A DNA stretch of 64,000 bases from Candidatus Hadarchaeota archaeon (GTDB taxonomy: Archaea > Hadarchaeota > Hadarchaeia > Hadarchaeales > JAGGTB01), in the NCBI GenBank assembly GCA_964384105.1, contig CAYLJV010000001.1, positions 653,482 to 717,481 of the forward strand, written 5' to 3'. The notes under the pieces were generated by a model. That model was not told the DNA's origin and did not search any database. It was given only the letters and a program-made list of their open reading frames with translations. Positions 14,172-24,440 of the stretch are shown piece by piece. How positions within the stretch are numbered: the first letter of the stretch is position 1; each line of letters starts with the position of its first letter. Made by a program: the position numbers and the translations under genes.

Positions 14172-14984
14172 ATGAAAGAGAGAATAACAGATTTCGTTGA
14201 GAAAGAAAAGGTAGTAGAGTTAGATAAGAGAGACAAGGCGGTATTTGTAGGAGATACTCATGGTGACCTCGAAGCATCGGAAAAAATATGGGATTTTTTT
14301 AGAGATGAAGTGATCGGAGGACAAACATATCTGGTTTTTCTGGGGGATTACGTTGATAGGGGAGCTAAATCAAAAGAAAATATTGATTTTTTGCTTTCAA
14401 AAAAGAGAGAATGCTCAAACGGGATTATTCTCTTACTTGGAAATCATGAGGCATATCATCTCAAAAATTTGACACCTGCGGATTTTTGGAAAAGTTTGGG
14501 TGAAGATGAGTACGATTACTATAAAGACCTATTGTCTTTACCTTGGATTGCTGAGACCCGTAACTTGGCGGCTATGCATGGGGCTTTGCCTTTTGTCTCA
14601 AATTTAAGTTATTTGAAAAATTCAGATGAATCTGTGTTCGAAAAAGAAAATGAAGTTGGATTTCCCATTTGGGTATCTGTGACTTGGGGTGACCTGAATT
14701 ATGATATCTCAGGAGCACAGATTGATCCTCTTACCTGTAGACCTCAGTTTGGAAAAGAGATATTCTTGAAATATATGCAAAAGCTTGGGTGGAACATTCT
14801 GATAAGGTCACATCAACCGGGAATGCAGGGCTGGTCTTTTTCCAATAACGTGCTAACAATTTTTACATCCCAAGCTTATGTGGATATGAATCGAGCACAA
14901 GAAAGAAGTATAGCGGTGGTCGATTTGAGGGAATGTGTTGAAAGAAAAAGGAATATAGAAATTTTGAGCTTGAAAGAGTTTTGA
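14172..14984 (+). CDS. PPP-family Ser/Thr phosphatase-like metallophosphoesterase
   Basis: GDTHG, GDYVDRG, GNHE, HG, RSHQ motifs. Confidence 0.88.
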   Translation: MKERITDFVEKEKVVELDKRDKAVFVGDTHGDLEASEKIWDFFRDEVIGGQTYLVFLGDYVDRGAKSKENIDFLLSKKRECSNGIILLLGNHEAYHLKNLTPADFWKSLGEDEYDYYKDLLSLPWIAETRNLAAMHGALPFVSNLSYLKNSDESVFEKENEVGFPIWVSVTWGDLNYDISGAQIDPLTCRPQFGKEIFLKYMQKLGWNILIRSHQPGMQGWSFSNNVLTIFTSQAYVDMNRAQERSIAVVDLRECVERKRNIEILSLKEF

Positions 14985-15030
14985 GTTTTTTATGAGTCGA
15001 GTTTTATGATAATCGCTACAAAACCTTTTT

Positions 15031-15048
15031 TATTCAATATTTTGAATA
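15031..15048. promoter_or_regulatory. Palindromic operator TATTC-N8-GAATA, copy 1, overlapping a TATA-like element
   Basis: TATTCAA-TATT-TTGAATA directly after AAAACCTTTTTTAT. Confidence 0.5.
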
Positions 15049-15052
15049 GTAT

Positions 15053-15162
15053 GCGGAGGAGTTATGAAACTCCTAAAGAGAGGCCGGTTCTTCACCTCCC
15101 CTGAAGATCTTTTTAAAATACCGGCCTCCCTCCCCTTTCTACGAAGTAATTCATTCGGCCGC
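15053..15162 (+). ncRNA. Candidate structured small RNA with two CCUCCCC motifs
   Basis: GC-enriched intergenic island. Helices: AGGAGTT/AACTCCT, GAGGCCGGT/ACCGGCCTC, TCTTCA/TGAAGA, CGAA/TTCG, closing GCGG/CCGC. TATA-like element about 25 nt upstream. Confidence 0.5.
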
Positions 15163-15254
15163 TGGGATTAATTGTTTAAATTCAAAAACTATTGATAATT
15201 CAACTAGAATTCTAATATGATTTGAACTATAACTATTGATTTAGAGGTGTTAAT

Positions 15255-15464
15255 TTGCGCTATTTTACGATTATTGGGATAATTTTTTTAGTTCTAGGGG
15301 TTGTCTTTCTTTTATTTTCGTTTTTACAAAATTATATTTCGTTTGAAAGTATCCCCTCGTGGCTTATTTACGTTTACAAAGGAGACAATTTTTACTTTGC
15401 TACTTCACCTATCCTGATACTTATCTCTATTTTGATTATAATTTTGAACTTATTTTTCGATTGA
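15255..15464 (+). CDS. Small two-TM membrane protein (DUF2905-like)
   Basis: SD GAGGTG before a TTG start; two hydrophobic helices around a short YKGDNFYF hairpin. Confidence 0.7.
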   Translation: MRYFTIIGIIFLVLGVVFLLFSFLQNYISFESIPSWLIYVYKGDNFYFATSPILILISILIIILNLFFD

Positions 15465-15508
15465 GCAATAATTAAAAAAAGAAAAGGCTTCGAGAAATGA
15501 GTTAAAGC

Positions 15509-15670
15509 TTAAATTGTGCTAAGTTCGCCGCTTTGAATCTTTTCCACTAGAACGTTCCAATGGTCTTTGGAAAGTTCTAACTTCTCGTTTCCTTCTCCGA
15601 TCGATGCACCATTCTCTGTCACCTTTACGGTTGGGCAACAGCCTTTTCCCGAGCATAGAGAAACTTCCAT
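15509..15670 (-). CDS. 53-aa Cys-rich small protein (not in the ORF track), DUF397-like pattern
   Basis: Translated by hand: MEVSLCSGKGCCPTVKVTENGASIGEGNEKLELSKDHWNVLVEKIQSGELSTI; strong SD GGAGGTGA 5 nt before ATG. Confidence 0.85.
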   Translation of the reverse strand: MEVSLCSGKGCCPTVKVTENGASIGEGNEKLELSKDHWNVLVEKIQSGELSTI

Positions 15671-15692
15671 ATTATTCACCTCCCAATTCTGA

Positions 15693-15710: not shown

Positions 15711-15837
15711 TTATTAAGTTTTTACTTTTTATCAGTATTCTTCTCTTATGTAATCTTGGAAGTCACTATTAATAGTTTCAATCTTTATTTGAAAAGGGTT
15801 ATCAAAAATTTTGGAAAAGGAATAAGGAGATTGAATT

Positions 15838-18009
15838 ATGGAAATAACTGAGGTTAAGAATAGATACGGGCTTCCAGAGGAAATTGCTGAGGTACTAAAA
15901 GAGGAAGGAATAACAAAGCTGTATCCACCCCAGTCAGAGGCTGTTAAGAAAGGTGTTTTAGAGGGTGAGAATCTTGTCCTTGCAATTCCTACAGCTGCTG
16001 GAAAAACATTAGTTTCAGAACTTTGTATGCTGAAATCTATTCTGGAGGAGGGCGGGAGCTGTCTCTATACAGTCCCTTTACGGGCTCTCGCGAGCGAAAA
16101 GTACGAAGAATTTAAGAAAAAATATGGGCCACTCGGTATAAAAGTGGGCATTGCAACTGGTGATTATGATGTTCCTAGTTCCGATTTGGCAAAGTACGAT
16201 ATACTGGTAGCTACTTCCGAAAAAGTAGACTCCCTTCTGAGACATAGGGCTAGTTGGTTAGCTGATTTGACTACTGTTGCAGTTTTTGATGAGATTCATC
16301 TTTTGGATGATTCAGGTAGAGGACCAACTCTGGAAATTTTAATTGCAAGACTTCGTCAGATCAACCCATCCCTTCAGATTTTGGGTCTGAGTGCCACTAT
16401 TAGCAACTCTCAGGAGATAGCGGATTGGCTAGATGCTCGTCATCTGAAAAGTGAGTGGAGACCGGTTCCGTTGAAAGAGGGAGTTTATTGTAAGGGGAAG
16501 ATTGTCTTTGAGGATTTATCTGAGAGAAAAATAGAGGATTCTGCAAAAGATAATGTTTCTAAGCTTGCTCTCGATACTTTGAGAAACGGGGAGGGACAAG
16601 TTCTGGTTTTTGTTAGTACGAGAAAATCCACGGAAGTTGCTGCAAGAAGGGTTTCCAAAAAAATAAAGGAGGTTCTTTCTTCAAAAGAAAAGGAGGAACT
16701 TACTGAGATCGCAAGAGAAATTGAAGTTGCTCTTGGAGAACCTACTGAAACGTGTAAAAAATTAGCTAGATATGTTGAGAAGGGTGCTGCCTTTCATCAT
16801 GCGGGCCTTCATCATAAACAGAGATCTATTGTTGAGGACGCATTCAGAAAAAATTTAGTTAAGGTTGTGTGCGCTACACCGACACTCGCAGCAGGAGTAA
16901 ATCTACCGTCTCAAAGGGTTATTATTAGAGATTATAAGAGATACTCCCCACCTTACGGTATGCAGCCGATACCTGTTTTGGAGTATAAACAGCAGGCAGG
17001 CAGAGCTGGTAGACCCGGATACGATGAGTATGGAGAATCTGTTTTGATATCGAGTTCGAAAAGTGAACTAGAGAAATTATTCGAGGGCTACATTGATGCA
17101 GATCCTGAGAGAATAAGATCAAAACTTGCTTCCGAACCTGCGATCAGAAGTCATGTTTTGGGGTCTATAGCTGCGGGTTATGTAAATAGTCTAGACTCTA
17201 TGCTTGATTTCATTGGCCAAACCTTTTTTGCTTACCAATTCTCTGCTGATCGAGTCTCGAGCACTGTTGAGAAAGTATTAGACTTTTTGAAAGAGGAGGA
17301 CATGATTTCGGATAGAGGGAGATGGCTAAGTGCGACGAAATTTGGAAGAAAAGTCTCCCAACTCTACATTGATCCTTTATCTGGAGTGGAGATCAGAGAT
17401 GCACTCCTTAATGCAAAATCGAGAGGTCCATCTGAAATAGGATTTCTTCACGCAATTTGTGCTACTCCCGATATGAATACCCTCTATCTTCGAAAGGGTG
17501 ATGAGGGAGATCTTGATCTATTCGTGTCTGATTACGATGCTGCTGGGAAGTTTTTAATTGATCCACCAGAAAGGTGGAAACAGCCGCAAAAATATGAATT
17601 CTATCTCGCAGAAGTCAAGACTGCGAAGATGTTAAGAGACTGGGCCAATGAGAAACCTGAAGATCAAATTCATGAGAAATATGGTATTGGAGCCGGAGAT
17701 ATTAGAAGAAAGGTGAGTACAGCTGAGTGGCTATTACACGCAGGATATGAAATTGCAAAGCTTTTTAAAATCGGCAATTCGATTAGACCGCTTCAAGATT
17801 TAAGGAAGAGGGTAAGGTACGGAATCAAGGAAGAACTTTTAGAATTAGTTAGTTTGAGAGGTCTGGGAAGAGTTAGAGCTAGAAGTCTTTATAACTCAGG
17901 CTACAAGAATAAGCAAGACCTCAAAAAAGCGAGATTAGAAGAACTTACTAGAGTCAGTCATATTGGAAAGGAGACTGCAAACCGAATTTTGAAACAGGTA
18001 CAAAGTTAA
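15838..18009 (+). CDS. hel308: Ski2-like DNA helicase Hel308/Hjm
   Basis: PTAAGKT, DEIH, SAT, FHHAGL, TPTLAAGVNLP, QQAGRAGRPGYD, C-terminal HhH. Confidence 0.95.
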   Translation: MEITEVKNRYGLPEEIAEVLKEEGITKLYPPQSEAVKKGVLEGENLVLAIPTAAGKTLVSELCMLKSILEEGGSCLYTVPLRALASEKYEEFKKKYGPLGIKVGIATGDYDVPSSDLAKYDILVATSEKVDSLLRHRASWLADLTTVAVFDEIHLLDDSGRGPTLEILIARLRQINPSLQILGLSATISNSQEIADWLDARHLKSEWRPVPLKEGVYCKGKIVFEDLSERKIEDSAKDNVSKLALDTLRNGEGQVLVFVSTRKSTEVAARRVSKKIKEVLSSKEKEELTEIAREIEVALGEPTETCKKLARYVEKGAAFHHAGLHHKQRSIVEDAFRKNLVKVVCATPTLAAGVNLPSQRVIIRDYKRYSPPYGMQPIPVLEYKQQAGRAGRPGYDEYGESVLISSSKSELEKLFEGYIDADPERIRSKLASEPAIRSHVLGSIAAGYVNSLDSMLDFIGQTFFAYQFSADRVSSTVEKVLDFLKEEDMISDRGRWLSATKFGRKVSQLYIDPLSGVEIRDALLNAKSRGPSEIGFLHAICATPDMNTLYLRKGDEGDLDLFVSDYDAAGKFLIDPPERWKQPQKYEFYLAEVKTAKMLRDWANEKPEDQIHEKYGIGAGDIRRKVSTAEWLLHAGYEIAKLFKIGNSIRPLQDLRKRVRYGIKEELLELVSLRGLGRVRARSLYNSGYKNKQDLKKARLEELTRVSHIGKETANRILKQVQS

Positions 18010-21062: not shown

Positions 21063-21656
21063 TTAGCCTAATTTTACAGTTTTTAGGTCAGAATATATTG
21101 GACCCTCTGGAGTTAGTTCACTTTTTTTGAGCTTTATTTCTTCGACTCTCGCTTTACCAAAAGAGGTCTCCGATTCTCGTTCTACAATTGAGCCCAGTTT
21201 ATCTTTCGCTTTCCCCGACTTAACTCTCGCTATTGTGAAATGAGGTATGAAGTCTTTGTCTTCGGAGGGGAAATTTATTTTCTTTAAACTCTGGTTTATT
21301 TTCTCTCTGAGTTGCTTCATTTTTTCCGAACCTTCAGAAACGCCGGCCCAGATAACTCTGATAAAACTGGGACTTGGGAATATTCCAAGCCCTTGAATTT
21401 CAATTTTAAATGGACCTAGTTTTTTAGTGTCTTCTAGTGCTTTTTTAACGTCTTCAAGTTTATCTTCAGAAATATTCCCCAGAAACCTTAATGTTGAGTG
21501 AATATTCTCAGGTTTAACAGTTTTCAAGTCCGCTCCGGTTCCTTCTAGTTCACTTTGAATAATTTTTAGAGATTTTTGGGCTTTTTCGCTTGACTCTATG
21601 GCGATGAATGATCTCGGCAAGTCTTGATCACCTTTCTGGCCAATTATTCTCATCAA
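21063..21656 (-). CDS. thpR: RNA 2',3'-cyclic phosphodiesterase (2H family; start probably TTG 21620)
   Basis: RSFIAIE, two 2H motifs HSTL and HFTI, SELTPEGPIY. Confidence 0.93.
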   Translation of the reverse strand: MMRIIGQKGDQDLPRSFIAIESSEKAQKSLKIIQSELEGTGADLKTVKPENIHSTLRFLGNISEDKLEDVKKALEDTKKLGPFKIEIQGLGIFPSPSFIRVIWAGVSEGSEKMKQLREKINQSLKKINFPSEDKDFIPHFTIARVKSGKAKDKLGSIVERESETSFGKARVEEIKLKKSELTPEGPIYSDLKTVKLG

Positions 21657-23414: not shown

Positions 23415-24440
23415 TTATAGATCCCAATATGGTCCTAATGCTTTTTTAACGTCTTTGAAGAAAGGGGTGGGAGTTCCTTCGGGTATATCATCTACTTTTT
23501 CCCCAGTCATGGCTTTTGCTATTTCCAAAATGGAATCAGAGGAAGCTTCGATTGAATATCCCCCCTCTAAGGTGAAAATAATCTTGTCCCCACATAATTT
23601 TTTTGCTTGCTCGATTGATCGTTTAGACAGCCAACCGAAAGCGCTGGTTGATAATTCTATATTAGTAAGGGGGTCATTTTTGTGGGCATCTAATCCCACA
23701 GATACTAGAATCATATCTGGCTTAAACTGATTGCACAATGGAACAAAAAGTTCATTTAGTGCAGCAGCATAGTTCTCGTCCTTGCTTCCAGGGTTGAATG
23801 GTACATTTACGGTGTACCCCTCTCCCTCTTCAGAACCAATTTCCTTAGGGAATCCTGTACCCGGATAAAGTGTACGACCATTTTGGTGAAACGAGATATA
23901 AAGAACGCTGTTGGTAGAATAGAATATTTCCTGAGTTCCATTGCCATGGTGAGCATCAAAGTCGAAGATTAGTGCTTTATTTATTTGGTCCTTTTTTAGC
24001 AAACTCTCTGTGGCAATCGCTATATTGTTAAAATAGCAAAAACCGCCCCCACCGTTGCTTGTAGCATGGTGCCCCGGCGGTCTAACCAATGCGAATCCGT
24101 TTTCAAATTTCCCCTCAAACACGTCCATGGTAGTTTTTACGGTGCCGCCTGCGGCCAAGCTTGCTATTTCAAATGTGTTGCGATTTATGGGTGTATCAGA
24201 CGTTAGCAGTCCACCACCCTTTTCACTGATATCCTTAATTTTTTTGATATAGGATTTGGTGTGAGCTAATTCTAGATCTTGGATATTTGCGGCATAAGGT
24301 TCAGAAATTTCTAGTTTTTTTATAAAAGCAGAGTTTCTAATTCTCTTTATTGATTTTCCGACCCTTTCAGGTTTTTCGGGGTGGTTCGGTCCAGTGTCGT
24401 GTTCAAGATATTTTTCAGAATAGGTTATTTCAGATACCAT
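23415..24440 (-). CDS. Histone deacetylase family (class II-like) amidohydrolase
   Basis: HPEKPER, RPPGHHA, GFCYFNN, DFDAHHGNGTQ, GLDAH..DPL, LEGGY. Confidence 0.94.
   Translation of the reverse strand: MVSEITYSEKYLEHDTGPNHPEKPERVGKSIKRIRNSAFIKKLEISEPYAANIQDLELAHTKSYIKKIKDISEKGGGLLTSDTPINRNTFEIASLAAGGTVKTTMDVFEGKFENGFALVRPPGHHATSNGGGGFCYFNNIAIATESLLKKDQINKALIFDFDAHHGNGTQEIFYSTNSVLYISFHQNGRTLYPGTGFPKEIGSEEGEGYTVNVPFNPGSKDENYAAALNELFVPLCNQFKPDMILVSVGLDAHKNDPLTNIELSTSAFGWLSKRSIEQAKKLCGDKIIFTLEGGYSIEASSDSILEIAKAMTGEKVDDIPEGTPTPFFKDVKKALGPYWDL

Follow-up and report, generated by a model that had tools for sequence, protein, structure and literature searches.

In Firmicutes, RsaE/RoxS and the hairpins of RNAIII carry C-rich motifs in loops or linkers that pair with G-rich ribosome-binding sites. 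Nearest to the locus described here are two archaeal small RNAs, sRNA154 (through its loop 2) and sRNA41 of M. mazei, whose loops are complementary to ribosome-binding sites, mask them and repress translation, as described in a review (PMC5867862). We analysed a window of 64,000 nucleotides from a Hadarchaeota genome, in which a first-pass annotation had marked a candidate small RNA with two CCUCCCC motifs and had suggested that it either regulates translation in trans or doubles as a leader peptide. The source genome is archaeal (1.62 Mb in 12 contigs, 39.8% GC), the window being part of contig 1, and the DNA runs that contain the stretch are labelled as microbial mat and brine metagenomes.

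A folded element in a lineage-specific stretch

The element lies between its 5' neighbour, a gene for a calcineurin-like phosphoesterase (14172-14984; below, the phosphatase gene), and a Hel308-type helicase gene farther downstream (15838-18009). In five congeners (L026-L030), the phosphatase gene leads directly to the helicase gene across a spacer of roughly 60-130 nt; because the two genes are adjacent there, the intervening stretch of about 850 bp in this genome (14985..15837, 853 bp, assigned to no strand), which has no counterpart in the five, is an insertion or rearrangement particular to the lineage. It contains the folded element, a gene for a 69-aa membrane protein (15255..15464, plus strand) and, convergent to that gene, a 56-aa ORF (15509..15679, minus strand). 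When the 853 bp were compared by BLAST with 65 other genomes of the phylum, DNA matches were confined to the two small ORFs. Near both borders of the stretch sits an 18-nt direct repeat (14946-14963 and 15815-15832, 15/18 identical), which may record the rearrangement or have arisen by chance. No trace of a decayed coding region from the genes that neighbour the locus in relatives was detected by tblastn (329 frames; best match, 18 bits).

As folded, the element spans 15053..15165 on the plus strand, with a likely RNA start near 15053-15058 and candidate ends at 15114, about 15141 and about 15185. Hairpin 1 (15057..15074) comprises 7 bp and a 4-nt loop, with a GGAGG sequestered in its stem and an AUG in its loop. 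Hairpin 2 (15080..15128, inverted repeat I3) is larger—a 9-bp GC-rich outer helix (15080-15088/15120-15128), a one-sided internal loop of 12 nt and a 6-bp inner stem (15089-15094/15102-15107), capped by the apical loop CCUCCCC (15095..15101). Directly 3' of it follows a second CCUCCCC (15129..15135), and a small CGAA/TTCG hairpin (15142-15145/15154-15157) and a 4-bp GCGG/CCGC closing helix (15053-15056/15159-15162) complete the structure. The helices, loops and 35-codon ORF named in the first-pass annotation were all recovered in place, as was the GC-rich island that it had noticed (GC 0.47 in 15050-15149 vs 0.26 in 14950-15049 and 0.28 in 15150-15249). In the partition function, all 7 bases of the apical loop are unpaired with probability 1.0, and the GGAGG of hairpin 1 is almost fully paired (unpaired probability 0.0-0.06). 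The second CCUCCCC had likewise been described as single-stranded, which holds at most of its bases and fails at the second and third (unpaired probabilities by base: 0.94, 0.25, 0.29, 0.94, 1.0, 1.0 and 0.98).

The plus-strand fold clearly exceeds its shuffled controls: its minimum free energy is -39.8 kcal/mol against -26.2 +/- 3.5 kcal/mol for dinucleotide shuffles (200 per strand; z -3.86), and a single shuffle of the 200 was as good. We also scanned the genome in 9120 windows of 110 nt drawn from 538 regions without ORFs of at least 90 aa, regressing folding energy on GC content. By GC-corrected energy, the region of the element ranked 3rd among the 538 intergenic regions, its residuals being -20.8 (minus strand) and -14.2 (plus strand) where the SD of all residuals is about 5. 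The top 45 regions of this list include 24 that are tRNA or rRNA and 5 from two RNA families with compensatory changes, so scores of this order generally mark genuine structured RNAs in this genome; a list by raw energy also includes RNase P RNA and SRP RNA. Further intergenic regions of exceptional GC-corrected energy lie on contig 1 at 110609-110718 (plus strand) and 499574-499683, on contig 2 at 118287-118396, on contig 8 at 21346-21455 and on contig 6 at 23947-24056. The last of these is an AT-only palindrome (GC 0.13), and no Rfam match at gathering level was obtained for the regions that were fetched, the one on contig 8 being left out.

Upstream on the plus strand, at 15019..15034, stands a BRE/TATA-like element consisting of an A-rich part and then a T-rich box, whose start is 27 nt from 15053; judged by eye against the upstream regions of tRNA, RNase P and SRP genes, this is a fitting distance, in agreement with the first-pass annotation. 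The GCGG arm of the closing helix may fall at or before the transcription start. Oligo-T terminates archaeal transcription, and a T5 run (15110..15114, plus strand) lies within the internal loop of hairpin 2 as a possible signal of this kind; the main product could therefore be an RNA of about 60 nt that ends in the loop hairpin and a U-tract. An end at 15114 could thus remove the long helix, and in an RNA truncated at the T5 run the apical loop is still predicted to be open (unpaired probabilities 0.89-0.94).

Four runs were compared over 1.2 kb that include the element. One of them, an oligo-dT RNA library of a sediment metagenome in a different study, has a single 151-nt contig there, which spans 15010-15160 and thus covers the element and no other part of the 1.2 kb. 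This contig is unstranded and has a depth of 2.6. Beginning 43 nt upstream of the proposed start, it could stem from carried-over DNA or from transcription that reads through from the phosphatase gene. Internally it differs by a single missing T in the T5 run, and of two other differing letters none is listed away from the contig ends. The deletion fits an RNA better than a peptide, because it falls in an unpaired internal loop and yet inside the 35-codon frame. Two RNA libraries (X6 and X7, with a small word share) lack coverage of the element and are uninformative on expression.

The C-rich loop, the 16S tail and ribosome-binding sites

The 16S gene of this genome ends 3' in GAUCACCUCCU, and the loop of hairpin 2 with its 5' flank (15092-15099) is identical to eight consecutive nucleotides of that tail, UCACCUCC. 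The element and the genome's own 16S 3' tail are thus alike in these eight bases, unpaired in both, and differ in that the element, of about 110 nt, carries them in a hairpin loop and adds two more C. By virtue of the two extra C, pairing of the element with sites of the AGGGGAGGUGAA type would exceed the ribosome's own in length. Use of GGAGG-type ribosome-binding sites, asserted for the genes of the window in the initial reading, was evident among 932 long ORFs of the genome, where the frequency of G reaches 0.31-0.40 at positions -12 to -8 vs about 0.17-0.2.

The loop with its flanks is perfectly complementary over 12 nt to the strongest ribosome-binding sites: the complementary 12-mer, AGGGGAGGTGAA, is found in front of four ORFs (113-237 aa), at a distance of 3-7 nt from the start codon, and complements of 10-11 nt precede the start codons of more than ten further ORFs, in a scan restricted to exact complements and based on crude ORF calls. 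Among the latter is the neighbouring 56-aa ORF, whose ribosome-binding site (15675-15684, complementary strand) is perfectly complementary over 10 nt to the element's loop region (repeat D4). Such complementarity is generic, since it follows from copying the 16S tail and any CCUCC has it. At two places in the genome vs 0.53 expected, one strand carries a pair of CCTCCCC motifs within 60 nt of each other (169 motifs in total); the second such pair, on another contig, is not accompanied by a similar element. Hairpin loops with CCUCC are not enriched in intergenic DNA, where 9 were counted vs 9 for the complement. Intergenic CACCTCC occurs 83 times, of which 58 are ribosome-binding sites of ORFs on the opposite strand; the other 25 include the 16S tail, the element and three copies of a seven-copy RNA family treated below, a set that is suggestive only.

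Relatives, known classes and other RNA families

The element is single copy in its own genome and, as far as sequence comparison reaches, is present in one species only. Homologs did not come to light in related genomes: BLAST with 15040-15175 found none in 40 relatives (best chance match, 22 nt, E 0.001), and no match appeared in the 65 other Hadarchaeota genomes searched. A single-sequence covariance model (R1) gave one match among the 40 relatives, at E 0.1 and antisense within an ABC-transporter ATPase gene. An exact 26-nt pattern of the element had 0 matches in the genome contig collection, and a gapped pattern had at least 119 matches in metagenome contigs, all 80 of the 80 loci examined being chance matches in contigs with GC contents of 0.48-0.80, mostly 0.6 or above, and none element-like; this second pattern was ill-chosen. 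Because the element has no relatives, it offers neither covariation nor a sign of selection.

Known classes of RNA did not account for it. In the 64-kb window, Rfam 15 gave 0 matches at gathering level, and over 14900-15350 the best match was to a plant microRNA model (23.2 bits vs a gathering score of 58), with no family at E 0.01. A tRNA has a cloverleaf, a 7-bp acceptor stem, a T-loop and U33. ARAGORN found no tRNA in the window and, in a run over the whole genome with introns allowed, none here; there was no Rfam tRNA match at E up to 10, the closing helix has 4 bp only, and a C takes the place of U33. Archaeal H/ACA RNAs have a two-sided pseudouridylation pocket, a K-turn or K-loop and an ACA 3' of the hairpin. 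By inspection, the internal loop of the element is one-sided (0 vs 12 nt), and there is no ACA 3' of the lower stem. Archaeal C/D RNAs carry a C box RUGAUGA and a D box CUGA near their ends, with guides of about 12 nt. Here, again by inspection, the heptamer closest to a C box is missing the G of the sheared pair, and the sole CUGA is 35 nt away from it. In the same ARAGORN run, the genome as a whole yielded no tRNA for Asn, Leu (UAA, UAG) or Pro (CGG) and a single CAU tRNA; as the genome is 90% complete, the absent genes may be unassembled, or else split by several introns. A 5S rRNA is present elsewhere in the genome.

The same genome holds two other RNA families, both outside the window. 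One, which we call the C-rich tail family, is an RNA of about 100 nt that has a TATA box of its own, forms two hairpins and carries an invariant CCCCC loop and a CCCUCCCCCC tail. It has two copies here (L069:1509-1606 and L077:1494-1590, plus strand), one of the family's copies sitting between the TBP and TFB genes, and one to four copies in five of six congeners (loci L070, L071, L073, L074, L076, L078, L238 and L239). In an alignment of nine members (A3), pairing holds in 97% of cells, and both sides have changed in 7 of 20 pairs, a degree of pairing or covariation reached by 0 of 500 shuffles; the family has no Rfam 15 match. The other (A5) is a structured element of about 240 nt in seven copies that are 72-81% alike and have promoter-like upstream boxes, three on the plus strand (L240:1501-1731, L242:1489-1726, L247:1299-1559) and four on the minus strand (L241:1501-1738, L243:1497-1743, L244:1479-1726, L245:1340-1611), with neighbouring genes that differ from copy to copy. 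Ten of its 41 predicted pairs show compensatory changes, and a large loop carries a CUCACCUCCUU-type motif; it is absent from 40 relatives by BLAST and has no Rfam match. These two families with compensatory changes are more solid products of the analysis than the orphan element.

The element resembles the C-rich tail family in having a promoter of its own (putative in the element), a first hairpin of 7-8 bp, a second one that is long, GC-rich and capped by a C-rich loop, and a CCCUCCCC-type tail, and the covariance model of the family (R2) aligns to it end to end. The score is 8.8 bits (E 1.2), 4th of 21 matches in the 64-kb window; three unrelated places score higher, and the element is not listed at E up to 1 genome-wide. 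Its apex also differs from that of the family, where five C and a CGG/CCG stem are invariant in nine of nine aligned members, and a local alignment on the same strand reached z 1.6, which is noise. We do not file the element in this family because of the model score, the missing invariant apex and the noise-level alignment. A regular expression for the shared layout, written post hoc, matches only the element and one family member in the genome, and weak R2 matches elsewhere are unreliable, one being a tRNA and another lying within an aspartate-semialdehyde-dehydrogenase-like ORF. Membership in the seven-copy family was rejected likewise: local alignments to all seven copies on the same strand reached z 1.9 at most (200 shuffles per copy), the shared part being a C-rich motif of 8-10 nt. 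It is conceivable that three unrelated, promoter-driven RNA classes—the orphan element, the seven-copy family of about 240 nt (CUCACCUCCUU) and the genus-wide family of about 100 nt (CCCUCCCCCC tail)—all expose C-rich sequence like the 16S tail and so together tune translation initiation globally or titrate factors that bind the 16S 3' end, with the orphan as a newborn member that arose recently in a rearrangement, an idea to which we attach little credence.

Competing readings and a putative small RNA

The element could be a functionless by-product of rearrangement, namely young inverted repeats that chance to fold and contain C-rich runs, which we consider unlikely while granting it a sizeable share of the probability. 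Consistent with such an origin, five congeners lack the stretch at the corresponding place, the element is without a relative in 65 other genomes, an 18-nt direct repeat (15/18) lies near both borders, and the helices are perfectly Watson-Crick, free of G-U, as expected of young repeats at the level of DNA. Against it, a single simple palindrome would not give three separate nested helices with an asymmetric internal loop, as good a fold arose in only 1 of 200 shuffles, GC-corrected energies of this order here mostly belong to real RNA genes, a promoter-like element stands upstream, a near-identical sequence occurs in a sample of another study, and the relatives' neighbouring genes have left no decayed coding trace (best 18 bits). 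Since all 22 pairs of the three main stems are Watson-Crick and none is G-U, folding is just as good on the minus strand (-43.7 kcal/mol, z -3.68), where 0 of 200 shuffles equalled it. A structured RNA might therefore be read from that strand, bearing two strong GGGGAGG-type look-alikes of ribosome-binding sites without an ORF and serving as a decoy for the 16S tail, not a mimic of it, or in some other function. Its larger residual in the genome scan (-20.8 vs -14.2 on plus) and a symmetric TTTAAA box at 15175-15180 speak for this, as does the sole position that discriminates between the strands, A-C on plus and G-U on minus (repeat I3). It is nonetheless distinctly unlikely in our judgement, given that no BRE-like A-run was found by eye on that side, that no start codon follows the look-alikes and that such an RNA would extend, in antisense, into the phosphatase gene at its 3' end.

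Two other readings tie the element to coding sequence. The 69-aa gene downstream has a GAGGTG site of its own, and encodes a two-helix protein of no Pfam family; among 41 genomes from the order, 25 (with this one counted) have a relative of it. In relatives, it lies usually behind another gene, or else behind an AT-rich spacer, with no GC-rich RNA upstream. The element, on the same strand and 90 nt upstream, could be part of a 5' leader of about 200 nt of this relocated gene, driven from 15019-15034, whose C-rich stretches would gate translation in cis by pairing with the GAGGUG site: the gene lost its usual upstream partner on moving, and the GAGGUG at 15243-15248 is open to pairing with CACCUC of the loop. 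When 15053-15260 is folded, however, the C-rich loop stays open and unpaired with GAGGUG, a separate TATA-like box (GTTTAAAT, 15174-15181) stands downstream of the element and ahead of the gene, and the T5 run and further T-rich stretches intervene. RNA-library contigs of a 92-97% relative cover 15257-15680, that is, the 69-aa gene and the 56-aa ORF, and begin at 15257, short of the element, though contigs cannot show starts. Such a leader is, on balance, quite improbable. The 35-codon ORF (15064..15171, plus strand) is probably not a gene; it is an open frame with GGAGG 4 nt before its ATG, but that GGAGG is locked in hairpin 1, with an unpaired probability of at most 0.06. The encoded peptide is without a convincing relative in 40 genomes and without any in six congeners (best match outside the genus, E 0.009; no Pfam match). 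In the sole near-identical variant, a 1-nt deletion within the frame would change its last 19 residues, on evidence of low depth and at a homopolymer. These results weaken the leader-peptide or dual-function idea of the first-pass annotation, and a gene for a 35-residue peptide is very hard to credit.

The fold, the rarity of the element, its open loop and the complementarity of that loop are established. The best explanation we can offer for them, held tentatively and with less than even confidence, is a young, lineage-specific, putative plus-strand small RNA that masks ribosome-binding sites. Transcription would proceed on the plus strand from the BRE/TATA-like element at 15019-15034, and the RNA would fold into two hairpins, the second showing an anti-Shine-Dalgarno copy in a fully open 7-nt loop and followed by the C-rich stretch after the helix. 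These C-rich stretches would pair with GGAGG-type ribosome-binding sites, best with those of the extended AGGGGAGGUGAA type; 5' leaders carrying AGGGGAGGUGA are where the RNA would bind or block loading of the 30S subunit, and keeping that subunit off would lower translation of the bound mRNAs. A separate transcription unit, its strand and ends, and an effect on translation are what we infer.

If the element is real, no small RNA with an action on ribosome-binding sites would have been described for Hadarchaeota before it; among the entries listed in a limited literature search there was no paper on small RNAs of this phylum, which is not proof of absence. As an example of a regulatory RNA gene of recent origin it would be unusually clean, being found in one species and absent at the locus in five congeners, and a newly arisen element of this sort bears on the birth of regulatory RNAs.

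Among known systems, the element is most like the trans-acting small RNAs that mask ribosome-binding sites, in that it exposes a sequence complementary to them and that complements of 10-12 nt stand before start codons. Firmicutes small RNAs with C-rich loops differ in being bacterial and conserved, whereas the element has no Rfam family at E 0.01. The likeness is closer to sRNA154 and sRNA41 of M. mazei, which are intergenic archaeal small RNAs with stem-loops and loops complementary to ribosome-binding sites (PMC5867862). The two are conserved across Methanosarcina and bench-tested, whereas the element belongs to one species and is a prediction. Archaeal small RNAs with an anti-ribosome-binding-site loop are already known as a kind, and the element is an orphan example of it.
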